DNA of 56,512 nt from Candidatus Hadarchaeota archaeon (GTDB lineage Archaea > Hadarchaeota > Hadarchaeia > Hadarchaeales > Hadarchaeaceae), in assembly GCA_964514965.1 (NCBI GenBank), contig CAZETV010000002.1:188545-245056 (forward strand). The letters are read 5' to 3'. Every line of letters starts with the position of its first letter. Positions within the stretch are counted from its first letter, which is position 1. Both the position numbers and the translations under genes were made by a program. The notes under the pieces were generated by a model. That model was not told the DNA's origin. It worked only from the letters and a program-made list of their open reading frames with translations, and did no database searches. Below are positions 39,454 through 52,441 of this stretch, piece by piece.

Positions 39454-39480
39454 GGACCAATCATTTTTAATCTATAGTAG

Positions 39481-39565
39481 TGCGGGGGACAGGATTCGAA
39501 CCTGCGAACCCCTTCGGGATGAGGTCCTAAACCTCACGCCTTTGACCTGACTTGGCTACCCCCGC
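39481..39565 (-). tRNA. tRNA-Leu (anticodon TAG), type II long variable arm, no intron.
   Basis: Revcomp GCGGGGG-TA-GCC-AAGTCAGGTCAAA-GGC-G-TGAGG-TTTAGGA-CCTCA-TCCCGAAGGGGTTC-GCAGG-TTCGAAT-CCTGT-CCCCCGC-A. Confidence 0.85.
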
Positions 39566-40209: not shown

Positions 40210-40785
40210 TTAGTCGGAACTCGGTTCCAACAAATCCTTGCTCAAAATCGCGAAGGTGTCGCCACCAACCTGATAGAAGTTCCGGACTTTTTCAACATTC
40301 ATAAATCTACCGTCAAATGCGCCCTCGTTCGCGTACGCTGCGACCACCTCTCCCACGAATAGGGTATGATCTCCCGTGGTAATCTGGTTCACAAGCTTGC
40401 ACTCGAGATGGGCAACGCATTCTTCGACGATCGGAGATTTAACGACTTTTGCGGGCTTGGCAGTCAAACCAATCTCGGAGAACTTGTCATGCTCGCGCCC
40501 AGAGGCTCTGCCGCACTTGATTGCTTTGTCGAGGATTTCAACTGCGGGGATATTTATTACGAATTCTTTGGCGCGCGCGATTAGCCCATGTGAGTATCGG
40601 CGAGGGGCAACGAGAACCCCAACAAGCGGCGGGTTCGCGGAGAGTGGCGCGGCCCAAGCGATTGTAATTAAATTAGGCTTTCCAGTCGTAGGGTCGACAC
40701 AACTGACAAGGACGACCAGCCTCGGGTAAAGTAATCTATACGCTTTTTGGCTTGGCACTTCTATTTTTTCCATCCCAATCACCAT
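40210..40785 (-). CDS. Flavin reductase-like (FMN-binding split-barrel, flavoredoxin-type) protein.
   Basis: RLVVLVSCVDPTTGKPNLITIAWAAPLSANPPLVGVLVA...HTLFVGEVVAAYA. ATG at 40785. The track ORF 40210..40902 reads through the upstream tRNA. Confidence 0.7.
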   Translation of the reverse strand: MVIGMEKIEVPSQKAYRLLYPRLVVLVSCVDPTTGKPNLITIAWAAPLSANPPLVGVLVAPRRYSHGLIARAKEFVINIPAVEILDKAIKCGRASGREHDKFSEIGLTAKPAKVVKSPIVEECVAHLECKLVNQITTGDHTLFVGEVVAAYANEGAFDGRFMNVEKVRNFYQVGGDTFAILSKDLLEPSSD

Positions 40786-40787
40786 GG

Positions 40788-40899
40788 TGCCCCGGGCGGG
40801 ATTCGAACCCGCGTCACAGCCTTTCTTCGTTAGCAACTCGAAAGGGCTGTATGATTTCGGCGGAGATTTACTCCTTGACCGGCCTACACCACCGGGGCC
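40788..40899 (-). tRNA. Intron-containing tRNA, most likely tRNA-Glu (anticodon TTC).
   Basis: Acceptor GCCCCGG/CCGGGGC, T-arm GCGGG-TTCGAAT-CCCGC, anticodon stem CAGCC/GGCTG with loop CTTTCGA followed by a 16-nt insert (GTTGCTAACGAAGAAA). A further ~20-nt insert (GGAGTAAATCTCC hairpin) sits in the D-arm region. The genomic CCA overlaps the ATG of the next gene. Confidence 0.55.
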
Positions 40900-41026
40900 C
40901 AATACCGTTTATGTTTTAAATTATTAAACTCGACTTCTTTGGAACATTTCTCGACCACAAATTTTTTTACTAAGTCGGTGGGGCACCATTATCTGTTCAT
41001 TTGACAAATCTGAAATCTATTCAAAT

Positions 41027-41046
41027 GGTGGGCCCGAAGGGGTTTA
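41027..41046. repeat. Short copy (GGTGGGCCCGAAGGGG) of the tRNA-Met 3'-end sequence. Possible att remnant.
   Basis: Matches gggcccgaaggg of the tRNA-Met gene at 51031 and the copy at 42391. Confidence 0.4.
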
Positions 41047-41160
41047 TACTTTTCTAGGTGTGAGTCCATCCGATTTCACCCAAAAAAATTTCCTTCATTG
41101 TATAGCACCTGAACCAAGGGCCCCGTCTTAATAAAAATCGCGCCTAGGCCTCCGGGACGG

Positions 41161-41360
41161 GAGCGCCTACTCGGAGAACTACACCTACGACGACGCCAAC
41201 CAGCTCCTAGAGATCGTGGCCTCGAACAACAGCGTCACCACCCTGAGACTTATGACAACAACGGCGGCATGACCGGCATGGTGACCACGGTCGGGGGAAC
41301 CGTCACCGACAACATGGCCTACTTCTACGACTACGACGGCAGGCTGGTGCGGGTGGAGAA
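41161..41360 (+). pseudogene. RHS/YD-repeat protein gene fragment (high GC, no intact ORF).
   Basis: Translates to ...SYSENYTYDDANQLLEI... and AYFYDYDGRLVRVEN, which are YD-repeat motifs. Near-duplicate of 42069..42120. Confidence 0.5.
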
Positions 41361-41388
41361 CTTAGATTTAATCGACTCCCCCCCTGAT

Positions 41389-41655
41389 TTATTTTCCCTT
41401 GTACGCCCCACGCCTGTGTCTGACGTATTGAATTTCAACCGACGCCTCACTTACTATTCTGTAAATAATCCGATAATCCCCAGCTCGTAATTTCCAGTAC
41501 CCCTCCCATCCGCCGTGGAGCTTGTCGCCCGCCCTGACATCGTCAAACAATTCGTCCATCGCCAGCTCTATCCGCCGTTGCACATCCGTCGGGAGCTTTC
41601 TTATGTCCCGCATCGCCCTTCGGGTAAAAGAAATTTCAACCATGTTGACGCCCAT
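41389..41655 (-). CDS. relE: RelE/ParE-family type II toxin.
   Basis: FTRRAMRDIRKLPTDVQRRIELAMDEL...WKLRAGDYRIIYRIVSEASVEIQYVRHR. Confidence 0.8.
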   Translation of the reverse strand: MGVNMVEISFTRRAMRDIRKLPTDVQRRIELAMDELFDDVRAGDKLHGGWEGYWKLRAGDYRIIYRIVSEASVEIQYVRHRRGAYKGK

Positions 41656-41681
41656 CGTTTAAAACGATTCAGTACCAGCTC

Positions 41682-41972
41682 TCACTTATTTTTTACACTC
41701 AAGCGCGGGGGCTGACGCCCGAAGACTTCCTCGTAGGTATAAATCCTTCCGGCCGCAGAGTCCTCTTGGGCCTCTCTAAGCGCGCGCAGAGCACGAGGGT
41801 CTGCCATCTCCTCAAGGGTCGCCATTATGCTGTTGTATTCCTTAGCCCCAATAACCACAGCGACGGGCTTCCCCTTTCTGCTCACGACAATCTGTTTCCC
41901 CGCCTCGGCATCGCGAAGCAAGCGGGGCAACTTTCGGTTCGCTTCCCTCACTCCTACAACCCGTCCAACCAT
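41682..41972 (-). CDS. Phd/YefM-family antitoxin.
   Basis: VGVREANRKLPRLLRDAEAGKQIVVSRKGKPVAVVIGAKEYNSIMATLEEMADP. Upstream of relE with 26-nt gap. Confidence 0.75.
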   Translation of the reverse strand: MVGRVVGVREANRKLPRLLRDAEAGKQIVVSRKGKPVAVVIGAKEYNSIMATLEEMADPRALRALREAQEDSAAGRIYTYEEVFGRQPPRLSVKNK

Positions 41973-42068
41973 CTGGATCACCAGTAACAATCGCCGTTAT
42001 CATACTTATAGGTTTGTATCTTTGTCAATACAAATGTATGTACTAAGTGTGAGGTTGCCAAGGAGAAC

Positions 42069-42326
42069 ATGGCCTACTTCTACGACTACGACGGCATGCT
42101 GGTCCGGGTGGAGAACTCGGCGACCTGGCCCAAGCTGGTCGTGGAGTACGGCTACGACCCGCTGGGCAACCGCGTCCTGCGGCGTGAATATCGTCTCTAC
42201 GAAAACGGCGACAGGACCGGAGAGAACGACCTCTACTACGTCGACGACTTGGCCGGCTCTTTGACCCAGGTGCTCCAGGCGTCCGACAACGCGGGGCGCT
42301 GTCCTCTGCGTATAAGGAATCCATGA
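42069..42326 (+). pseudogene. RHS/YD-repeat C-terminal fragment.
   Basis: MAYFYDYDGMLVRVEN...YGYDPLGNRVLRREY. Isolated 85-aa ORF, GC-rich island. Confidence 0.5.
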
Positions 42327-42390
42327 AACGCGAGATCGTGAAAGAGCTTTCTATTGGGTCCGAAAATGACGAAATATTCTTACCTGGGCA

Positions 42391-42423
42391 GGTGGGCCCG
42401 AAGGGATTTAACCCGCCAACCAC
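42391..42423. repeat. Degenerate direct copy of the tRNA-Met 3' half (T-arm plus acceptor). att-like remnant 8.6 kb from the intact gene.
   Basis: gggcccgaagggatttaacccgccaaccacgaac vs gggcccgaagggattcgaacccttgaccactcgg at 51031. About 26/30 identical, same orientation. Confidence 0.55.
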
Positions 42424-42764
42424 GAACTTCTAGACCCAACTCAGAACCGCCTTGGAACCGACGCAATAAGCGAAAACGCTTTCGGGGGCCCACGCTATGA
42501 CCTCCCTGTGCGCCATGAACTGCCAATTTTTATTTATGAAACGTGGGGGATGAAGCTGGGGGCCGGATTATGCACCGTGGGTTTGGGTTCGATGGCTCAA
42601 GTGCGTTGGCGAGGCGCCGCACGGACTGCTCGCTGGGGAGGTTGAAAGAAATATACGAGAAGGCGGGGTTGAGGATGCTTTCCTAAGATTTAGACCTCAT
42701 GCGCAGCAATTGGTAAAATATCTGCACCTGTGTTGAGTAAAAAAATAAAAAGGGACGGAAAGAA

Positions 42765-43049
42765 TTACTTCTTTCCGAGCACTATTTCAATTGTTGAGAC
42801 GTTTGTTGCACCGCGTTCTCCTTGCATGGACTCGGTTCCTATCAAAATGTTCTTCACTATCATGTTTTGCAGGAATCTGTTTTTGGTGATCTCCGCAACG
42901 TCGACCGCTCTGCTAATCGCTTTGCCTCGTGCCTTGAGGGTGACGTCGCCGACACCCTGGTTGGCCTGCGTTATCACTGCAAGGACGTAGTTCATCACTA
43001 GTTTTATTCCAATAAAAACCACGTTTCCAGCGGCTCTTTGTTCTGCCAT
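42765..43049 (-). CDS. albA: Alba (Sso10b) DNA/RNA-binding chromatin protein.
   Basis: [52 protein letters not shown]. Confidence 0.9.
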
Positions 43050-43165
43050 AGTTTCTTACCTCCCCACGATTTGTCCAAATATTCTATGATTTCTAATCCT
43101 AAATTTTTTGGGGTTAATCCCTTGGCGAGGAACTACTTTATAACCTGACGAAGAAACCATGAGAA

Positions 43166-43831
43166 CTAGACTGGAAGTCTTAACACTACGATCTTTTGTT
43201 CCTTAGGTAAACTGTCTTTCGTGACGCTAAGGCCCGGACCATTGGTTTTCTCAACGGTTTTCTTACCTTTTAGAAATGCATCGAGGGCGATAGGCATCAC
43301 CCTTGACAACCACGGCGATGCACCTGAGAACCCTGTGTTGTAATGCATCGGTATAATTATTTTCGGGTCCAATTTGGTGATAACCGACCATGCGACATCG
43401 GGCCCTATGGTGGCTCCTCCCGCAACTGGTGTGCACAGCACGTCTACCTTGCCTATCTCCTTTGCCTGCTCCGCGGTCAGGTCGTGACCTAGGTCTCCCA
43501 AATGACACAGTTTGAGGCCGTCAAGCTGTACAGTGTAGACGCTGTTCTTCCCTCTTTGGCTGCCCCCAGCGTCGTCGTGTAGGGTCGCCACGCCCTTCAC
43601 TGGAATGCCTCCAACGTCCTTTGCGCCCACGAATCCTTCTAGGGCATCTCCTCCTTCTTTGAGGACCGGTTTTACGTTGTTGTGGTCCCTGTGGCCGTGG
43701 CTGCACAGGACGACGTCAGCTTTTGCCTTTGGCTCAGGTAAGCCGATCCCTCCGAAGGGGTCAAACACGATTGTAGCATTCTGTCCCCTCACCTCAAAGC
43801 ACGCGTGCCCATGCCATAGAATATTCACCAA
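43166..43831 (-). CDS. Metallo-beta-lactamase-fold hydrolase (UPF0173-like).
   Basis: NILWHGHACFEV...VLCSHGHRDH. Confidence 0.7.
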   Translation of the reverse strand: MVNILWHGHACFEVRGQNATIVFDPFGGIGLPEPKAKADVVLCSHGHRDHNNVKPVLKEGGDALEGFVGAKDVGGIPVKGVATLHDDAGGSQRGKNSVYTVQLDGLKLCHLGDLGHDLTAEQAKEIGKVDVLCTPVAGGATIGPDVAWSVITKLDPKIIIPMHYNTGFSGASPWLSRVMPIALDAFLKGKKTVEKTNGPGLSVTKDSLPKEQKIVVLRLPV

Positions 43832-43977
43832 AATACCCGCCCCCTTTCTAAATGCACCGAGTTTTAATAGTTGAACAAAGCCTTAACTTTTTCGCTCTCC
43901 TGGAGTTTGATGGCATGCTGAATTCTCCGCTTTAGACTCCACCTCCCAAACCATTGAATGGGAGGTGTGGAAAAAGC

Positions 43978-44277
43978 ATGACCACATACGTGGGTTTGGA
44001 TGTGCATCTGCGCACGTGCCACGCGACGGTGATGGACGAACACGGAAGAATCCTGAAGCAGGAGAAATTCCCGAACGAGCGTCCGGAGTTCGAGAGGGTC
44101 CTCAAGGGCATCGACGATGCGAAGGTCGCGATGGAAGCGTGCTACTGCTGGCAGCCCGTTCACGAGCTGCTCGAAACCTTTCTCGTAACCAGATTGCCTA
44201 TTGCGGCATTCAATATTCCTATTGTCGTCGTAGTTTTCATTTTTCATCAGGCCTCTTCCTTTGATATAACTCGGTGA
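43978..44277 (+). pseudogene. IS110-family transposase N-terminal fragment (truncated).
   Basis: MTTYVGLDVHLRTCHATVMDEHGRIL...AKVAMEACYCWQPVHELLE is the DEDD N-domain only. The 3' part is overwritten by the convergent radical-SAM gene. Confidence 0.55.
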
Positions 44278-45625
44278 CAAGGTAGTGCATCGCTTTTCTA
44301 AATATGAACCCTTTATCCTTTATCAAGTCCTTTGCTAGTGTTTTTGGACGAAGGTAAAATTTCAGGTAAGCCAATTTCAAAGCGTTTGCTATCTGAGACG
44401 CCGTGAGGTATTTTAATTTCATTACAGGGTCCAATGTTGTGAATTTTTTCCAGTTCGTTGTGAGAAGTAATTTTTCTTTCAAAGCATATGACCATAATTT
44501 CGTCCCCGGATAAGGAGTGGCTATGGTAAATTGGGCGAAATCAACTCCTACTTTTTTCGAAAAATTTATTGTTTTATTAACATCTTCCCCATTTTCCTCG
44601 GGAAAGCCTATCACAAAAGACCCCAGCGCATGCAGTCCAGCTTCCTTCGCGTTTTTCACGGCCAATCCCGATTTTTCCAGCGTGATCCCTTTCCCAATGA
44701 AATCGAGTGTTTTTTGGGAGCCTGATTCCAGGCCAAAGTATACGGTGTGGGCTCCTCCTTTTTTCATCGTGTTTGCAATTTCCGCAGAGAACGTGTCCAC
44801 TCTTGAAGACGCGGTCCAAGAAATATCCAATCCCTCTTCCCTTATTTTCTTGGCTATTGCGATCACCCTAGGTTTCAATAAGGTGAATGTATCATCCATA
44901 AATTCCACGTCGGTTTTACCGTATTCATGCCTGAGTATGGATAGTTCTTCCATGGTTCTCTCCACGCTGTGCCCACGCCATTTCTTCCCGAATTGCAGGG
45001 ATGAGGAGCAGAATATACAGTTGAATGGGCAACCCCTGCTAGTAATTATTGTCGCAAATTCAACTTTGCCCGACTTGTATTTTTTCATGGGAAGTAATTC
45101 ATAAGATGGAATTGGAATTGTATCGATGTTTTCTATCAGCTTTCTTGGCGGGTTATTTATTATTTTTCCGTTCTTTTTAAAAGTCAACCCATTTATCTTT
45201 TTAAAATCCGCTCCATTTCCGAGGGCATAGACCAGTTCTTTAAATGTGTCTTCCCCTTCCCCTCTCACGATAAAGTCTACATACGGGCATTCCTGCATGA
45301 TCCTCTCTGGTACAAAAGTTGCGTGTGGCCCTCCTAAAATAATATTAATGTTTTCATTTATCCCTTTAGCGATCTTTGCTATTTCGTATGCATCTGGCAT
45401 CATCGAAGTTGTCGCCGTTAAACCAACTATGTCAGGGTCTGAATCTCTTATTATCTTGGCCACATCTTCCCTTCCGTATCCTTCCGCAATTGAATCGATG
45501 ATTTTCACGTCATGTTCATCTTTTACCATTGAAGCAAGATATGCTAAGCCAAGAGGGGGCATGGTTTCGCCCATAACTCTTCTTACGGCGCTTTCTGTTG
45601 GGGGAGAAACCAGCATCACGTTCAT
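44237..45625 (-). CDS. B12-binding domain radical SAM enzyme (class B rSAM).
   Basis: N-terminal cobalamin-binding domain (PLGLAYLASMV...DIVGLTATTS), then SRGCPFNCIFCSS. Confidence 0.8.
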   Translation of the reverse strand: MNVMLVSPPTESAVRRVMGETMPPLGLAYLASMVKDEHDVKIIDSIAEGYGREDVAKIIRDSDPDIVGLTATTSMMPDAYEIAKIAKGINENINIILGGPHATFVPERIMQECPYVDFIVRGEGEDTFKELVYALGNGADFKKINGLTFKKNGKIINNPPRKLIENIDTIPIPSYELLPMKKYKSGKVEFATIITSRGCPFNCIFCSSSLQFGKKWRGHSVERTMEELSILRHEYGKTDVEFMDDTFTLLKPRVIAIAKKIREEGLDISWTASSRVDTFSAEIANTMKKGGAHTVYFGLESGSQKTLDFIGKGITLEKSGLAVKNAKEAGLHALGSFVIGFPEENGEDVNKTINFSKKVGVDFAQFTIATPYPGTKLWSYALKEKLLLTTNWKKFTTLDPVMKLKYLTASQIANALKLAYLKFYLRPKTLAKDLIKDKGFIFRKAMHYLVTELYQRKRPDEK

Positions 45626-45665
45626 GTTATCTCACTTTTTCTGGGTGGCCGGTCATATACCGGTG

Positions 45666-47189
45666 TTAGGCAGCCATCCGCGGTGGAACTTGGGATCTTG
45701 ATCTAGCCTGCTCGAGCTCCTGCCAGTAATGGATGTTGTGGATGCAACCCGGGTCGGGCGCCTGTACGTCCCCATAGTAGCCGTAGGCACGTGCCCTGCA
45801 CCCGCCGCATATGTACTTGTGTTCGCATTGGCCGCAGTTCTCCAGGGCATCGCGGTTCCTGAGCTTCCAGAGGAGCTCCGTGGAGTCCCAGATATCGCGC
45901 AGCCTGTCCTTCCTTATGTTGCCGAGCTTGATGGGCATGAAGACGCAGGGGGTTATGTCGCCGTTAGGTTCGAGCCCGCAGTACAGCCTTCCGGCCCCGC
46001 ACCCCCCTAGGAACTCCGCGAGGCTCTTTGTCCGCCCCTGTAGCGCACTCATGGCAGCGCGGTTCGTGAAGTGCGTGGCCACCACCCCGACCGCATCGTT
46101 GCCCAGAGCGTACTCCCAGGAGACGGTGGAGTACTGGGGCGCAGTCGAATAGCATATCATCTTGCAGTTGCTGTCCATCATCCTGTTGTAAAGGTACTTG
46201 AGGAGCTCCTGCCTGTCCTCCGGGCTTAGGTCCTGTTCGGTGATTTCCTTTCCCCTCCCCGTCGGCACGTAGTTGAATACTATCACGCGTCCAACTCCGA
46301 GCTCCTTCTCGGCGAAGTCAACCAGCTTCGGAATCTCGTGAAGGTTATAACGAGTTGCGGTGAGGGCAACGCAGGTGTCAATCCCTTCGGCAACGCAGTT
46401 CTTGATTCCCTCGCATGTGCGCTTCCAGGCCCCGGGCACCCCCCTGAACTTGTCGTGGGCCGCCTCGAATCCATCGAGGGAGATTTCAGCGTAGCCGAAA
46501 ACATCCTTCATCTTCTTGGCCATATCCCGCGTGATCAGCGTTCCATTGGTAGCGACTGAGGTGTAGAACCCCCTGCTTTTCGCGTATCCGGCGACTTCAA
46601 AGATGTCCTTCCTCGTTAACGGCTCTCCCCCTGAAAAGGCGATGGCAACCACGCTGGCATCTTCGAACTCGTCGATTACGTGCTTGGCCTCCTCGGTTGT
46701 GAGTTCGTCCTCCATCGCCTTCGGTCCTGCATTCTCATAGCAATGCTCGCACCGCAGGTTGCATAACTTTGTATAGTTCCAAACGACCAGGAAGGGCGCC
46801 ACGGAGATGAAGGGCCTTCGAGTGCCGTAACGCGCGATGCCCTCCAGCACGTTGACCATGGCGCGCCTTATCATCGGGTCCGACATGTTTTCCTTCAGAT
46901 TGGAGTCAGAATAACCGAAGGCGTTTGCCCCGTGATCAAGCACGAATTTAACGATTAGTGAGGCGAGAGCGTCCTGCACGTCGCATTTAATTTCCTCGCC
47001 GGTATATTTACGAAGAGCAATATCGAGCCTGTTGCCTCCCCCCCTGCTTCGGCCACAGACTAATCTTAGCATGGCCCTTGAGACTGGGTTATCGAGCCAA
47101 CGCTGGACATGGCCAATTACCGCATCCTCAGTCCTAACCTCAGCTCCCACCTTGATGCTTTTGTTGGAGGCCATTCTATCCACCCCCAA
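45666..47189 (-). CDS. Radical SAM enzyme with C-terminal SPASM domain and ~130-aa N-terminal extension.
   Basis: CNLRCEHCY core; SPASM cysteines CGQCEHKYICGGCRARAY. Confidence 0.8.
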   Translation of the reverse strand: MGVDRMASNKSIKVGAEVRTEDAVIGHVQRWLDNPVSRAMLRLVCGRSRGGGNRLDIALRKYTGEEIKCDVQDALASLIVKFVLDHGANAFGYSDSNLKENMSDPMIRRAMVNVLEGIARYGTRRPFISVAPFLVVWNYTKLCNLRCEHCYENAGPKAMEDELTTEEAKHVIDEFEDASVVAIAFSGGEPLTRKDIFEVAGYAKSRGFYTSVATNGTLITRDMAKKMKDVFGYAEISLDGFEAAHDKFRGVPGAWKRTCEGIKNCVAEGIDTCVALTATRYNLHEIPKLVDFAEKELGVGRVIVFNYVPTGRGKEITEQDLSPEDRQELLKYLYNRMMDSNCKMICYSTAPQYSTVSWEYALGNDAVGVVATHFTNRAAMSALQGRTKSLAEFLGGCGAGRLYCGLEPNGDITPCVFMPIKLGNIRKDRLRDIWDSTELLWKLRNRDALENCGQCEHKYICGGCRARAYGYYGDVQAPDPGCIHNIHYWQELEQARSRSQVPPRMAA

Positions 47190-47793
47190 AAGTAGAAGTG
47201 ATCTTTGACCAATCCGCAGCCCATCGGATCTGGTTGCCGTACTTGTCCATGAGCAGCAAATGCCTGGCCGGGAAGGGGAGTTCGTCCAAGTTCGTTATCA
47301 ACGGCGTTGGGGGGTTCCTGGCGATGCTGTCGCCATTGCGATAGCATATGCCGGTTACTGTGGCTAGGCCGCCGCCGCTTTCGAGTGCTTTCGTCAGATT
47401 GAGCATAGTTCTTTCCCCTTCGCCGACGCAAACCGCATCCAGCTGGGGACACCCTTTCAGGGTTTCGGTCGGGAGGAACGTGGGGTGTGCGCCGCCCATT
47501 ACAGTAAAGGCGTCCGGGCAGGACTCCTTGGCTATACCCATGGCGGCCATCGCGCCGTAGATTGTCGGCGTTACGGCCGTTGTGCCCACGATGTCCGGAT
47601 TCTCCTTTCCCAGTCGCGCTTTCAATTCCGCGGGCCCGATGCACGTCGCTGGGACGTCTATTATCCCGACCTCGTGCCCAGCCCCCTCGAGAACCGCAGC
47701 TATGTACGCCAGTCCCATCGGAGGCATCAGGATCTTGAGGTACTCCTGAACTTCCATCCCCGGCGAAGCGGGGTTGATTAATATTACCTTCAT
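47176..47793 (-). CDS. Standalone B12-binding domain protein (possibly the truncated 5' half of a class B rSAM gene).
   Basis: KVILINPASPGMEV...PPMGLAYIAAVLEGAGHEVGIIDV...DIVGTTAVT...FPARHLLLMDKY, then the ORF ends just where the CxxxCxxC would be expected. Overlaps the next rSAM by 14 nt. Confidence 0.55.
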   Translation of the reverse strand: MKVILINPASPGMEVQEYLKILMPPMGLAYIAAVLEGAGHEVGIIDVPATCIGPAELKARLGKENPDIVGTTAVTPTIYGAMAAMGIAKESCPDAFTVMGGAHPTFLPTETLKGCPQLDAVCVGEGERTMLNLTKALESGGGLATVTGICYRNGDSIARNPPTPLITNLDELPFPARHLLLMDKYGNQIRWAADWSKITSTFGGG

Positions 47794-47883
47794 TTTGCCA
47801 TCCCCTCAGGGCTCGGCGGTTTTCGCCCGCCCGGGTTCGGGGGCCATATGAGTACCGCCTTTATGCTCGATGCGCCCTCCGTT

Positions 47884-48336
47884 TCATCCCCTAGGCCGGG
47901 ACATCTCTTCCCGGAGCTTCTCAAGGAGATTGCGTAGTGTCCTCCGTTCGTCTGTCGTGAACGCTCGAAAGACGTTCCGCATGTACTCGCTGTACCTCGT
48001 AGCTACAATTTCTTGCACGGCTTTCCCCTTGGGGGTGAGCTCTATGATGGTGGCCCTCCTGTCTCCCCGTCGCGCCATCCTCTTTAGGAGCCCCTTGGAC
48101 TCGAGCCTGTCGATTATCCCGGTGATGTTGGCCGGAGTCACGAGCATTTCATCGCTTATCCCCTTCATCGGCGTCGCGCCATTTTTGGCAACTATCCTCA
48201 ACACCCGGAACTGCGGCTGAGTCAGCCCTTCCTTTAAAAGCATTTCTGTGATGCTGCATTGCATCACCTTGTACGTCGCTATGACGGCGTTGTATGTCTC
48301 GTTGGGATGTCCCGCTGGTCCTTCTCCTTTGGGCAT
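47884..48336 (-). CDS. MarR-family transcriptional regulator.
   Basis: LTQPQFRVLRIVAKNGATPMKGISDEMLVTPANITGIIDRLESKGLLKRMARRGDRRATIIELTPKG. Start placed at the internal Met (TATA-like box about 25 nt upstream, probably leaderless). Confidence 0.75.
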   Translation of the reverse strand: MPKGEGPAGHPNETYNAVIATYKVMQCSITEMLLKEGLTQPQFRVLRIVAKNGATPMKGISDEMLVTPANITGIIDRLESKGLLKRMARRGDRRATIIELTPKGKAVQEIVATRYSEYMRNVFRAFTTDERRTLRNLLEKLREEMSRPRG

Positions 48337-48895
48337 GTTGTAAAATAAGTTAGTCAAAGTATAAATAGTTAAGTCATTAACTGTTTCTTTGGTTATACCT
48401 TGAACGCAAGCAGCATAGGCTCTGAAATGGTCCCCTTCAGAGGCACACGAGAACCCACAAAGGCCCGTTTTTCCGGGCCTGAAACGAGCGAGCCAAGGCC
48501 CGCAATCGCAGTGATACACGAGGTATGGGGAGTTAGTAAACCACACAAAGGACGTAACGAACAGATTCGCGAGGGAGGGATACGTGGCGCTCGCTCCCAA
48601 CTTCTCCTCGTGTCCAGAGCTGGCCTCGCTGCTCACACCTCAGAATATTGGCATCACGATGGGTTTCGTTCAGACACTGCCTGCCGAGAGGAGGGCGGAC
48701 ATGGTTTATGCACGGCAAGAGTCTGCAAAGCAACCGGCCGGGACGAGAGATGTGGCACAGAGGATGATGAGTAAGATGTTTGGAGGAATGCAGAAGGACG
48801 CTCCCACAAAAGAAGCGGTGAAAGTAGTGGACGTGTTATATCGCGGTTAGGAGCTTGCGCGCTTTAGCCCCTGCTCGAACTCGAGGTGCAAAAGA

Positions 48896-50716
48896 ATGGT
48901 CGAATACAAGTGGGTCGCCCTCTCCAACACCACCCTGGGCGTGCTGATGGCCACGATAAACGGATCGATAACCCTGATCTCTCTGCCAGCGATATTTCGC
49001 GGGATTAACATCGACCCCCTCACATCTTTTCAGTACCTGTTGTGGATTCTCTTCGGCTACAGTATCGTCACGGCCTCCTTGCTCGTCATGTTCGGACGGA
49101 TATCCGACATGTACGGGAGGGTGAAGCTGTACAACATGGGGTTCTTAATCTTCACGGCAGGTTCCATACTCCTGTACTTTACTCCAAGCGGCGGAGACCT
49201 CGGAGCATTAGAAATAATCTTCTTCAGGATAGTGCAAGGACTGGGCGCCGCCTTCCTCTTTGCCAACAGCGCGGCAATTATCACCGATGCCTTCCCCTTC
49301 AACGAACGTGGTAAAGCCTTGGGCATAAACCAAGTAGCAGCAATGATCGGCTCCATCGCGGGGCTCATCCTGGGCGGAATCCTGGCGGCCTTCGACTGGC
49401 GTTACGTCTTTCTCGTCAGCGTGCCCGTTGGTATTTTCGGGACAATCTGGTCGTACCGGAAGCTCAGGGAGCTCGCTGCGATACGGAAGAACCAAAAGCT
49501 CGACCTCTTGGGCAACGCCCTGTGGGGTACGGGTCTCACCGTGATCCTGCTGGGGGTGACGTACGGGTTGATCCCGTACGGAGGCTCAACCATGGGCTGG
49601 GGCAACCCCTGGGTAATCACCGCGCTCATATTCGGCGTTGCGCTGCTGGTGGCGTTTCCCTTCGTAGAGGCCAGGGTAAAGGATCCGATGTTTAGGCTGG
49701 GGCTGTTCAGGAACAGGATGTTCAGCGCCGCAAATTTCGCCGGGATGCTTGCAGCCATCGGCAGAGGAGGGGTCATGATCATGCTGATAATACTGCTACA
49801 GGGAATATGGCTCCCGCTCCACGGATACAGCTATGAATCGACGCCCTTCTGGTCCGGCATATACATGCTGCCCCTGTTGGCTGGTTTTGTTGTCATGGGA
49901 CCGCTGAGCGGCTGGCTCTCGGACAGATACGGTGCCCGGGGCCTCTCCACGCTTGGGATGCTGATCACGGCGGTCACCTTTTTCGCGCTCGCGGCCCTTC
50001 CTTACAACTTCGACTATTTGCCCTTCGGCGTGATCCTCTTCGTGCAGGGTATCGGGGGTGGGATGTTTGCGTCTCCAAACACGGCATCGATCATGAACTC
50101 CGTTCCCGGAGAACACCGCGGCGCCGCTTCGGGGATGAGGGCGACACTCCAGAACACAGCGACGACGGTGAGCCAGGCGCTGTTCTTCACCATCGTGATT
50201 TTCACCCTCGCCAACAACCTGCCCAGCGCCTTCTCGGCCGCCTTCACGAGTGCCGGCGTGCCCCAGCTCGGTTCGGTCTTCGCCCAGACTCCGCCGACCG
50301 GGGCTCTCTTCGCTGCCTTCCTCGGCTACAACCCTGTCGGCAGCATCGTCTCGCAGCTCTTGCTCAACCAGAGCACGGCCTCGTTGGTGTCGTCTATTCC
50401 GCCGCAGACCCTGAGCTACCTGACGGGCAACACTTTCTTCCCGACCGCGATCGCCCCTCCGTTTATGGGCGCACTGAGTTTCGCCTTCTACGTCGGCCTT
50501 GGCCTCTCCGTTGCGGCCGCGGTCTCGTCCCTTTTCCGTGGCAGGGTTTACATATACAAAAAGGAGGTGACTGTCGCCCCCAAGCCTCCCGTCCTTCCGC
50601 CGATAACGGGGCAGGAAAGCGATGCTCAAAACCTGAGCGGCAAAGGAGATATGCGAAAGGCCCCCCGTGGCGCGATTGGATTAGAACCTTCGCCGCGCAA
50701 GGAGGGGGATGACTAA
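48896..50716 (+). CDS. MFS transporter, 14-TMS DHA2/EmrB-like efflux pump.
   Basis: [11 protein letters not shown], multiple hydrophobic spans, 606 aa. Confidence 0.85.
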
Positions 50717-50753
50717 TTGAGTCAACAAGTCTACAATTATTACTCTAGACGGA

Positions 50754-51056
50754 TTGAGGAGCGTTTACGCCAACGCGAACATGAACATCAGGCAACGGCC
50801 CGCAATCTCCAAGATAGACCAGCTGAAAGTTTTCGCTCAAGGCCTGGGGTTGAATCCCGATCAGATCATCATGTCCGGCGCATTGGCAGAACCACACAGG
50901 GCCATAGTGACTCCGGGCGACTTGGAGGCTTGGCAGGTACAAACCCTATCCTCGGCTCTGAAGGAAACCCTCAAAAACGAGATTATTTCCGAGCTATCGT
51001 TTGGGTCCAAAGGTATATGGTTAGAGGAATGGGCCCGAAGGGATTCGAACCCTTGA
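50754..51056 (+). CDS. Hypothetical ORF running into the 3' end of tRNA-Met. Paralogous to the segment at 716..900. Candidate N-terminal fragment of a tRNA-targeting, SSV-type partitioned integrase, or a decayed gene.
   Basis: IDQLKVFAQGLGLNPDQIIMSGALAEPHRAIV shared with 716..900. The last 26 nt of the ORF are tRNA-Met sequence. Confidence 0.3.
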   Translation: MRSVYANANMNIRQRPAISKIDQLKVFAQGLGLNPDQIIMSGALAEPHRAIVTPGDLEAWQVQTLSSALKETLKNEIISELSFGSKGIWLEEWARRDSNP

Positions 51057-51125
51057 CCACTCGGTTATGAGCTTCGCCCAACTTAAGCAGCTGTCGAGCG
51101 CTCTAACCAGCTGAGCTACGGGCCC
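51030..51125 (-). tRNA. tRNA with anticodon CAT (elongator Met or Ile2) carrying a ~22-nt intron immediately 5' of the anticodon loop (non-canonical position).
   Basis: Revcomp GGGCCCG-TA-GCTC-AGCTGGTTA-GAGC-G-CTCGA-[CAGCTGCTTAAGTTGGGCGAAG]-CTCATAA-CCGAG-TGGTC-AAGGG-TTCGAAT-CCCTT-CGGGCCC-A. G1:C72, so not an initiator. Confidence 0.7.
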
Positions 51126-51209
51126 TGTACCAACTTCTCTAAGGATTGATTAAAACATTTGCTAAACAATATTAAAATGGAATCGCACGAATTATTATAA
51201 GGTGGAGAC

Positions 51210-52196
51210 TTGGCTGTAAAAATTCTATCTCACGGCGACACCGATGGCGTATGTTCAGCAGCCCTCGCTAAGGCGCGCTTTCCCAATGCAGAAGTTTGGT
51301 TCACCCGCCCGATAACACTCTTGCGCGACCTCAACACAATTAACATCGGCAACGTAGTTTTCATTTCAGATATCGCAATAAGCGAGACCCATAAAGAGGA
51401 GATATTCAAGCGCATGCGTGAACTTGCGCAGAAGGATGAAGTCATCTACATCGACCACCACCCGCTCCCCCCCAATACTCTGAAGAGGGACATCCCGGCC
51501 ACGCAGTCTGCTCATGAGATAGGCACGAGTGCTTCGGAGATTACCTTCCGATTTTTTAAATCAGACATAAACCCAGATTTGGACCGAGTCGCATTGTGGG
51601 GCGCGATTGCCGATTACTGCGAAGAGACCGAGTTCGTGCGCGATGGAATGAGCAAGTACGACAGGCGAACAATCTACATGGAGGCAGGGCTGCTTACCCA
51701 AGCGCTGGGCGAGGCTGCAGGCGATTATCACTACAAACGCGATGTTGCACTCAAGCTAGCGCGGGGCGACCCCCCAACGGAAATCCCAGAAATTGTCGAC
51801 CGGGCAATTAAAGCAACGAAACGTGAGTGGGAGGTATGGCGGTACGTCAAGGAACATGTAATACGTGAGGGGAATATTGCGATTATCTATGACTTGCCCT
51901 CCGGCAGCCTCGGGAAAGCGGCGCTCTACGCGCTGGGAACGACTGGCGCTAATGTTGGAATTTGCACCCGAAAAGACGACGACGAGATAGACGTGAGCAT
52001 GCGGCGCCGGGCAGGGGCAAAGATCGACCTTAACGAGATGCTCCGCCACATCACCGCTCGCGTAGGAGGCTCTGGAGGTGGGCACGAAGGAGCCGCTGGT
52101 GCGACTATTCCGGCCGACCTCTTTGACTCTTTCTTGGATACAATTAAGAAAGAAATCTCGCCTGTGATAAGCAGGAACTTTACACTCAAGAGATAG
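51210..52196 (+). CDS. DHH-family phosphoesterase (NrnA/RecJ-like, DHH plus DHHA1).
   Basis: ILSHGDTDGVCSAA, YIDHHP. Confidence 0.75.
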   Translation: MAVKILSHGDTDGVCSAALAKARFPNAEVWFTRPITLLRDLNTINIGNVVFISDIAISETHKEEIFKRMRELAQKDEVIYIDHHPLPPNTLKRDIPATQSAHEIGTSASEITFRFFKSDINPDLDRVALWGAIADYCEETEFVRDGMSKYDRRTIYMEAGLLTQALGEAAGDYHYKRDVALKLARGDPPTEIPEIVDRAIKATKREWEVWRYVKEHVIREGNIAIIYDLPSGSLGKAALYALGTTGANVGICTRKDDDEIDVSMRRRAGAKIDLNEMLRHITARVGGSGGGHEGAAGATIPADLFDSFLDTIKKEISPVISRNFTLKR

Positions 52197-52275
52197 CTAG
52201 AACAAATCTACCTCAATAATTCTCTAGGCCTAACCATCACAACAATGCGTGAGCCTTCTCGTGCTAGATACTTTG

Positions 52276-52441
52276 TGGCGCCGGGGAGAGGACTCGAACC
52301 TCTGACCGCCTGGTCGCTGTACACAAGCATGTCGTCCCCGGTAATTGAGGTTCGTTCTTCATCCATGCCAGGTTTAACAGCCAGGCGCGTTCGGCAGGCG
52401 CAGAATTAACTGTAGCCTACTACCTACTGCGCCACCCCGGC
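52276..52441 (-). tRNA. Probable tRNA-Asn (anticodon GTT) interrupted by a ~64-nt intron at 37/38 and a second ~29-nt insert in the D-arm. CCA encoded.
   Basis: Acceptor GCCGGGG/CCCCGGC-G-CCA, T-arm AGAGG-TTCGAGT-CCTCT. Anticodon stem CCTGG/CCAGG with loop CTGTTA|A separated by about 64 nt. D-stem GCGC then a 38-nt stretch before the 3' D-stem. Confidence 0.5.

Follow-up and report, generated by a model that had tools for sequence, protein, structure and literature searches.

Three of the five tRNA genes in the window (the 56,512-nt stretch of contig CAZETV010000002.1, assembly GCA_964514965.1, that was analysed here) were interrupted by five introns, two each in tRNA-Glu(UUC) and tRNA-Asn(GUU) and one in a tRNA(CAU) gene. 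Three of the five were at non-canonical positions (20b/21, 22/23, and 30/31). The motifs at the junctions, the cloverleafs restored by removal of the inserts, and the presence or absence of the same introns in orthologous genes were established directly. The five inserts are very probably archaeal bulge–helix–bulge (BHB) introns, which would be spliced to yield ordinary tRNA-Glu(UUC), tRNA(CAU), and tRNA-Asn(GUU).

The junctions were located by homology to intron-less orthologues, and the archaeal BHB rule was applied to them (a central helix, H, of 4 bp, both strands of which have a 3-nt bulge that is cut behind its second nucleotide). An unrestricted BHB scan was rejected as evidence, as it yields many chance motifs in any tRNA; the homology-anchored junction test was used, and a few misaligned tRNA(CAU) genes were resolved by hand. 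The motif was present at all five introns, with all four pairs of H formed in four of them and three of four in tRNA-Asn 22/23. The tRNA-Glu 37/38, tRNA-Asn 37/38, and tRNA(CAU) 30/31 motifs were strict, and the remaining two were relaxed. The strict motifs comprised, for tRNA-Glu 37/38, H CUUU/GAAG (4/4) with an outer helix (h) of 7 bp and an inner helix (h') of 3 bp; for tRNA(CAU) 30/31, h GAG/CUC, H CGCU/GGCG, and h' CAGCU/AGUUG; and for tRNA-Asn 37/38, H of 4/4 pairs and h of 7. At tRNA-Glu 20b/21, H was formed by CGGU/GCCG (C17a-G18-G19-U20 with GCCG), the bulges were CA↓A and AA↓A, h' was GGAG/CUCC, and the outer helix was absent (h = 0). At tRNA-Asn 22/23, H was formed by AGGU/GCCG (A17-G18-G19-U20 with GCCG) with an A·G mismatch, flanked by h of 2 bp and h' AGGC/GCCU. 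The minimum free energy fold of pre-tRNA-Glu held both of its BHB motifs (z = −3.97), and in the D-loop motif H, the 3-nt bulge, and h' were all reproduced.

Removal of the five introns in silico left canonical cloverleafs of 73–75 nt (without CCA) with normal D, anticodon, and T arms. ARAGORN, a check proposed in the initial annotation, miscalled the unspliced genes and identified the spliced sequences as Glu(ttc), Met-type (cat), and Asn(gtt). That annotation had counted three intron-bearing genes among five, with an insert of ~22 nt in tRNA(CAT) directly 5' of the anticodon loop and second inserts in the D-arms of tRNA-Glu and tRNA-Asn. All of these were found in place with BHB motifs and restored cloverleafs, as 22 nt at 30/31 in the 5' strand of the anticodon stem, 20 nt at 20b/21, and 30 nt at 22/23. 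Of the anticodon-loop introns, given as 16 and ~64 nt, the first was exact for tRNA-Glu, and the second measured 60 nt in tRNA-Asn. The positions of all features are listed in Table 1.

Table 1. tRNA genes, their introns, and the islands in the window (position 1 is the first letter of the window).
Feature	Positions	Strand	Length, sequence, or exons	Motif, boundaries, or source
tRNA-Pro(GGG)	948–1023	minus	without intron	ARAGORN
tRNA-Leu(UAG)	39480–39565	minus	without intron	ARAGORN, Rfam
tRNA-Glu(UUC), CCA encoded	40785–40898	minus	exons 40876–40898, 40839–40855, 40785–40822	Rfam 42.9 bits, two large inserts
tRNA-Glu D-loop intron, 20b/21	40856–40875	minus	20 nt, AGGAGUAAAUCUCCGCCGAA	relaxed HBh'
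tRNA-Glu intron, 37/38	40823–40838	minus	16 nt, AGUUGCUAACGAAGAA	strict hBHBh'
tRNA(CAU), no CCA encoded	51030–51125	minus	exons 51095–51125, 51030–51072	Rfam 56.7 bits
tRNA(CAU) intron, 30/31 (anticodon stem, 5' strand)	51073–51094	minus	22 nt, ACAGCUGCUUAAGUUGGGCGAA	strict hBHBh'
tRNA-Asn(GUU), CCA encoded	52276–52441	minus	exons 52420–52441, 52375–52389, 52276–52314	T-arm/acceptor scan, ARAGORN with introns allowed
tRNA-Asn D-arm intron, 22/23	52390–52419	minus	30 nt, UAGGCUACAGUUAAUUCUGCGCCUGCCGAA	H 3/4
tRNA-Asn intron, 37/38	52315–52374	minus	60 nt	strict BHB and long covarying stem
tRNA-Asn 37/38 intron core	52331–52363	minus	near-invariant AGAACGAACCUCAA	stem, GAU bulge, GA, near-invariant stretch; 3' strand ACGA, then stem
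Island	42406–51029		~8.6 kb	bounded by CCCTTCGGGCCCA copies
Island	41042–42392		~1.35 kb	bounded by CCCTTCGGGCCCA copies

The lineage of the window was taken from its neighbouring proteins. Between tRNA(CAU) and tRNA-Asn lies the gene of a DHH-family protein that was 56–94% identical to proteins of 26 Hadesarchaea/Hadarchaeota metagenome-assembled genomes (MAGs), and Pfam families in the window included an NrpR regulator, an archaeal phosphopantothenate synthetase, and aEF-1alpha; judged from these proteins, the window organism belongs to the Hadesarchaea/Hadarchaeota. A contig with an identical gene and unchanged gene order was found in Logan run SRR14802574. The comparative set consisted of Hadarchaeota genome loci (L001–L026) and metagenome loci (L029–L148, of which 43 were tRNA-Asn introns). 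The tRNA-Asn, DHH, tRNA(CAU), tRNA-Glu, and flavin-reductase genes were syntenic in the relatives, and the orthologous tRNA genes could thus be read directly.

Across the orthologues, the exons were near-invariant, and the introns were either precisely absent or replaced by unrelated sequence of equal BHB geometry. The tRNA-Glu gene was intron-less in L007, L010, and L018, carried the 37/38 intron only in L002, L003, L005, and L015, and carried both introns in the window, L001, and L004; these first seven loci lacked the 20b/21 intron precisely. A 15-nt D-loop variant occupied the same site in L006, L008, L009, and L011, and the D-loop intron was therefore polymorphic within Hadarchaeota, being present in 7 of 17 examined orthologues with a length of 15 or 20 nt. 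Other sites in tRNA-Glu were 34/35, inside the anticodon, in L012 and 53/54 in L013. The tRNA(CAU) gene was intron-less in five loci (L007, L011, L013, L017, and L024), and the 30/31 intron was present in six (window, L002, L005, L012, L018, and L020); introns at 37/38 and 9/10 were found in seven and four loci, respectively. Among the 22 genomic tRNA-Asn genes, the 37/38 intron was always present, an 8/9 intron was found in 10, and the 22/23 intron was found in nine and missing from 13; three introns were present in L025. At the 22/23 site of L004, L015, L021, and L025, the intron had a different sequence with a strict 4/4 H. The intron-less alleles displayed the mature D-arms, namely stem-AGUAGGUA-stem for tRNA-Asn (L007, L011, L013, and others) and GUGU-AGxCCGGUCAA-UCAU for tRNA-Glu.

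For 121 distinct introns with junctions set by homology, the central helix was formed by 4/4 pairs in 100 and by 3/4 in 21, whereas junctions shifted by 5–7 nt as a control gave 4/4 in 1.2% and 3/4 in 9%; judged from these sequences, the BHB pairing at the junctions is not a chance occurrence. In the alignment of 18 tRNA-Asn 37/38 introns, 95% of the cells paired and eight pairs changed on both sides, a covariation score reached by none of 500 shuffles. For the tRNA(CAU) 30/31 intron, 60 of 60 cells paired, compared with 24–43% in slid controls, and two h' pairs changed on both sides.

Introns had been proposed to be lineage-informative, and this held at a fine scale only, as relatives with a 93–94% identical DHH protein already differed from the window. 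Within this group, L001 had the tRNA(CAU) intron at 37/38 instead of 30/31, and L002 and L005 lacked the tRNA-Glu D-loop intron and had an additional tRNA(CAU) intron at 9/10. The sites worked out across Hadarchaeota were 8/9, 9/10, 20b/21, 22/23, 30/31, 34/35, 53/54, 59/60, and 68/69, and the comparative set forms a natural series of intron gain and loss over nine sites and three tRNA families. Sites additional to those of the window were 8/9, 59/60, and 68/69 in tRNA-Asn (the latter two from metagenomic relatives), 9/10 and 37/38 in tRNA(CAU), and 34/35 and 53/54 in tRNA-Glu. One metagenomic tRNA-Asn gene (L066, contig Ga0164318_10048536, minus strand) contained four BHB introns (8/9, 20 nt; 22/23, 28 nt; 37/38, 59 nt; 59/60, 27 nt), and its 207 nt were reduced to a perfect 73-nt tRNA by splicing in silico. 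The archaeal maximum has been given as three introns per tRNA gene (PMC4033280), and the nuclear tRNA genes of C. merolae also reach only three (PMC3728597).

Two side observations were made in the relatives. ARAGORN called an intron in the tRNA-Pro(GGG) gene of L006, L008, L009, L022, and L023, while the window copy is without one. Just upstream of the tRNA-Asn genes with an 8/9 intron, the acceptor 5' strand occurred a second time, as GCCGGGGA(A)(A)U GCCGGGGU..., in L006, L008, L018, L019, L020, L022, L023, and several metagenome loci; this additional copy might pair alternatively with the 3' acceptor strand or be a leader-processing motif.

Several points weigh against BHB splicing of all five inserts. 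The genes for the splicing endonuclease (endA) and the ligase (rtcB) are not in the window, and tblastn with an M. jannaschii EndA query retrieved no endA from the window or from ~0.4 Mb of related loci, a search in which a divergent homologue could have escaped. The tRNA-Glu D-loop intron is without the outer helix, a form that loop-less EndA cuts poorly. The covariation of the tRNA(CAU) 30/31 intron comes from five sequences only, and its score was reached by 66 of 500 shuffles. The tRNA-Asn 22/23 intron has two possible registers, one that gives a canonical tRNA with the A·G mismatch in H and a strict one that gives a C13·A22 mismatch.

The strict register is an unlikely alternative that would concern the boundaries of this one intron. 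It would be 28 nt long with its cuts 2 nt further 3', and it has in its favour a perfect central helix (GGUA/UGCC) with 3-nt bulges and a product still called tRNA-Asn by ARAGORN. However, it lacks the outer helix, against h = 2 in the 22/23 register, and its product has a 10-nt D-loop together with the C13·A22 mismatch, whereas relatives without the intron or with another 22/23 intron family all have the 8-nt D-loop AGUAGGUA together with a D-stem in which every pair is formed. Because the intron-less alleles display the mature D-arm, the junction was fixed at 22/23 despite the perfect H lying 2 nt away. The predicted mature D-arm is GCGCAGUAGGUAGCGC for 22/23 and GCGCAGUAGGUAGUACGC for the alternative register.

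It is very improbable that the D-arm inserts are alignment artefacts, or that the genes are decaying pseudogenes, with only the anticodon-loop inserts being real introns. Rfam and ARAGORN do handle these genes badly (tRNA-Asn was missed, and Arg, Leu, and Ile were miscalled under a single forced intron), and the tRNA-Asn D-arm motif is imperfect (H 3/4). However, the D-arm BHB motifs lie at junctions set independently by intron-less orthologues, and many lineages have inserts at the same site, with differing sequences and compensatory changes. The exons are conserved while the introns vary, and G18G19/A21 and the D-stem are restored only when the D-arm inserts are removed; the comparative sequence data largely refute this explanation already. 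That the inserts are another kind of element (remnants of group I or II introns or small insertions of mobile DNA), otherwise removed or retained, has a negligible probability: group I introns exist in archaea (PMC6125680) and tRNA(CAU) is clearly a target of DNA integration, but inserts of 16–60 nt are far below the length of self-splicing introns, match no Rfam intron family, and all have BHB geometry, and the integration scars are separate and outside the gene body.

For the five BHB introns, we infer the enzymes, cleavage, ligation, and order of removal from established archaeal tRNA splicing. Folding of the pre-tRNA would place the two junctions of each intron in 3-nt bulges that flank a 4-bp helix on opposite strands, EndA would cut each strand after the second bulge nucleotide, and an RtcB-type ligase would join the exons and probably circularise the intron. 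For this lineage, the EndA that would act here has been reported as alpha4 with an additional L3 loop; increased disruption of tRNA genes and an alpha4 EndA with the L3 insert were described for Hadesarchaea (Kaneta et al. 2018, PMC5829648). In M. kandleri, the canonical intron appears to be removed before the D-loop intron (PMC3695527, PMC5829648). The HBh' form without an outer helix is cleaved poorly by EndA without a specificity loop (PMC5829648). Multiple or non-canonical introns had been taken in the initial annotation to require an endonuclease of relaxed specificity. The three strict motifs need no special enzyme, because archaeal EndA recognises the motif and not its position, and the requirement stands for tRNA-Glu 20b/21 and tRNA-Asn 22/23; the need for a broad-specificity EndA is set by relaxed motif shape rather than by intron position. 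The series of intron gains and losses is relevant to a proposed co-evolution of tRNA gene disruption with endonuclease specificity.

ARAGORN, Rfam, and a scan for a T-arm followed by an acceptor strand gave five tRNA genes in the window, all on the minus strand. ARAGORN and Rfam jointly flagged tRNA-Pro, tRNA-Leu, tRNA-Glu (as 40788–40898), and tRNA(CAU), and ARAGORN with introns allowed added tRNA-Asn; the T-arm/acceptor scan recovered the same five genes and no convincing sixth in the window. The tRNA-Asn and tRNA-Pro genes scored below the Rfam tRNA gathering score, and tRNA-Asn was also missed by default ARAGORN. When one anticodon-loop intron was forced, ARAGORN and ARAGORN -i miscalled the interrupted genes as Arg, Leu, and Ile. 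The Rfam alignment placed 29 nt against ~5 D-loop positions and 19 nt against three anticodon-loop positions of tRNA-Glu, and 31 nt in place of nine central anticodon-arm positions of tRNA(CAU). Default tRNA finders thus miss or mislabel three of the five tRNAs of the window, plus many in related MAGs. Without BHB-aware tools, Hadarchaeota genomes would therefore appear to be short of Asn, Glu, and Ile2/Met tRNAs. A T-arm-like match on the plus strand at 707–856 was rejected, as no tRNA could be derived from its sequence; this intergenic segment adjoining tRNA-Pro contains a hairpin (GCCGAGA...UCUCGGU), a D-arm-like GCCAAGGGGAAG, and a T-arm-like TTAGG-GTTGAAT-CCTAG, and has no Rfam match.

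The tRNA(CAU) is of the elongator type (G1-C72, stem CUCGG/CCGAG). Its GGGCCCG acceptor stem, A73 discriminator, and GGCUCAUAACC are what we take to be closer to archaeal tRNA-Ile2 (modified with agmatidine) than to elongator tRNA-Met. Its identity is Met or Ile2, with Ile2 the more likely as a putative assignment by this resemblance only.

The tRNA-Asn 37/38 intron contains a conserved element and is a candidate functional RNA; that it is one, rather than a passive spacer, is possible but less likely than not. On the 5' side, its alignment has a covarying stem and then (G/A)AU-GA-AGARCGARCCUC(A/C)A, and on the 3' side (G/A)ACGA. The stretch AAGARCGARCCUC was near-invariant in 22 genomic and 43 metagenomic tRNA-Asn genes of the Hadarchaeota type; the scan of metagenomes with this core retrieved 120 loci, and those other than the 43 tRNA-Asn introns were chance matches in coding DNA. 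The core resembles a kink-turn (K-turn), with a box C-like GGAUGA and a box D-like ACGA. An arrangement compatible with a K-turn (stem, NAU bulge, GA...GA, stem) was found in 51 of 55 distinct introns, the four misfits being L145 and three short introns in which this stretch is held by a plain hairpin loop. The C-like box reads (G/A)UG(G/A)AUGA, and the D-like box was ACGA in 45 of 51; the sole CUGA occurred in L145, where the flanking stem is 3 bp. The stretch upstream of the D-like box was variable. By sequence inspection, CGAACCUC (8 nt) is complementary to the T-arm of its own host tRNA-Asn (G50–G57).

No Rfam family matched the element. A canonical box C/D RNA was rejected, since the core has no room for a C'/D' pair, no conserved D' after its 12-nt spacer, no D' ruler, and no guide that stops 5 nt short of a D or D' box, and has ACGA in place of CUGA. 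In the analysed DNA, in which rRNA was not included, the only trans matches to the conserved stretch were its own antisense and chance matches in coding DNA. The box C/D guide in the tRNA-Trp intron (Haloferax, Pyrococcus sR50) is alike in residing in an intron at the canonical position with a K-turn-type motif, beside which a conserved single-stranded stretch is complementary to the host tRNA (PMC7994747). In contrast to this guide, the tRNA-Asn intron has the D-like ACGA for CUGA, neither a C'/D' pair nor a D' ruler after the C-like box, a match of 8 nt to the T-arm instead of the anticodon arm, and, in some lineages, the stretch in a plain hairpin without a K-turn. On present evidence, the element is outside the tRNA-Trp box C/D guide family. 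The K-turn-like motif would probably bind L7Ae, and the intron could act in cis, or in trans after excision, guiding or chaperoning the modification or folding of the T-loop. If true, this would be, next to the box C/D intron of tRNA-Trp, a second kind of guide encoded by an intron.

The distance between tRNA(CAU) and tRNA-Glu was 10,131 nt in the window, compared with 57–628 nt in relatives. The 3' end of tRNA(CAU), the 13-mer CCCTTCGGGCCCA, was present in three exact minus-strand copies (51030–51042, 42393–42405, and 41029–41041), compared with 0.12 expected by chance. The spacer after the third copy is the one that lies directly 3' of tRNA(CAU) in L001 and L004 and leads to tRNA-Glu, and the CCA is no longer encoded in the tRNA(CAU) of the window. 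Direct repeats of the tRNA 3' end thus bound DNA (41042–51029) that is absent from relatives, which indicates, from the sequence arrangement, two putative tandem insertions into the 3' end of tRNA(CAU). By Pfam, the island genes included MFS, MarR, B12/radical-SAM, MBL, and Alba families. They also included a ParE/Phd toxin-antitoxin pair (41389–41990), short RHS/YD-repeat open reading frame (ORF) fragments (41269–42326), and a truncated IS110-family transposase (43954–44277). No integrase was found by Pfam in the islands, in a scan that left out the ORF at 43864–44280. The middle attachment-site (att) copy lies within a decayed tRNA-like remnant of ~110 nt (42391–42499, minus strand) with a 5' GGGCCC, a D-arm-like UUCU-GAGUUGGGUCU-AGAA, and a degenerate T-arm. 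A weak SAM-III match at 42387–42499, on the opposite strand of this remnant, was rejected because a decayed tRNA(CAU) 3' half accounts for it. A weak sR30 match at 48760–48815 has a C box and no D box and was also rejected.

The encoded CCA of tRNA-Glu had been claimed to overlap the ATG of the downstream flavin-reductase gene. The overlap is present in the window, where the A of the CCA (40785) is the A of an in-frame ATG; however, this ATG is absent from all relatives, which read CCAAGGTGAT at this position, and was created by a single A-to-T change specific to the window. The relatives read GGGGCACCAAGGTGAT...ATGGAAAAAATAGA, with a Shine-Dalgarno sequence (GGTGAT) immediately after the CCA and an ATG 12 nt downstream. 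In the window, the GGTGAT box is at 40783–40778, 1 nt past the tRNA-Glu CCA, and the conserved ATG is at 40773–40771 (minus strand), at which the gene (Pfam Flavin_Reduct) most likely starts, judging from its conservation. The conserved feature is that tRNA-Glu directly abuts the ribosome-binding site of the flavin-reductase gene, and this adjacency suggests that the tRNA and the mRNA may be co-transcribed.

Multi-intron tRNA genes have reportedly been described from Thermoproteales and other TACK archaea, Nanoarchaeota, and ARMAN by Sugahara (2007/2008) and Fujishima (2010). The known archaeal intron positions include 20/21, 22/23, 25/26, 29/30, 30/31, 45/46, 53/54, 56/57, and 59/60 (PMC4090602), and multi-intron tRNAs are prominent in Thermoproteales (PMC4033280). 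The genes of the window and its relatives resemble those of Thermoproteales, TACK, Nanoarchaeota, and ARMAN, in which BHB introns lie at many non-canonical positions (20/21, 22/23, 30/31, 53/54, and 59/60 among them), one gene can hold several introns, and turnover among close relatives is rapid (PMC4090602, PMC4033280). Those groups differ in having (alpha-beta)2 or epsilon2 EndA with CSL/ASL loops, whereas the window host belongs to a euryarchaeote-related lineage. In Methanopyrus kandleri, tRNA-Glu has a canonical and an HBh' D-loop intron, and RNA-seq together with cleavage in vitro showed the removal of both, with a lag for the D-loop intron (PMC3695527, PMC5829648). The pre-tRNA-Glu(UUC/CUC) of this species is alike in its strict BHB at 37/38 and its relaxed HBh' in the D-loop just before A21, a likeness in intron layout that is not established for the intron sequences. 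Unlike the alpha4 enzyme with the L3 loop reported for Hadesarchaea, its EndA is an (alpha-beta)2 enzyme without a specificity loop.

A close known case from the same class as the window organism is Hadesarchaea archaeon YNP_N21 (Kaneta et al. 2018). The window is a further case of a described phenomenon that was already noted for this class, and the finding adds detail to a known picture and opens no new question. In contrast to that paper, which gives only proportions for one genome in a figure, genes, positions, and polymorphism across Hadarchaeota are given here, and what is new is which genes are interrupted, where exactly their junctions lie, and how the introns are polymorphic at the population level.

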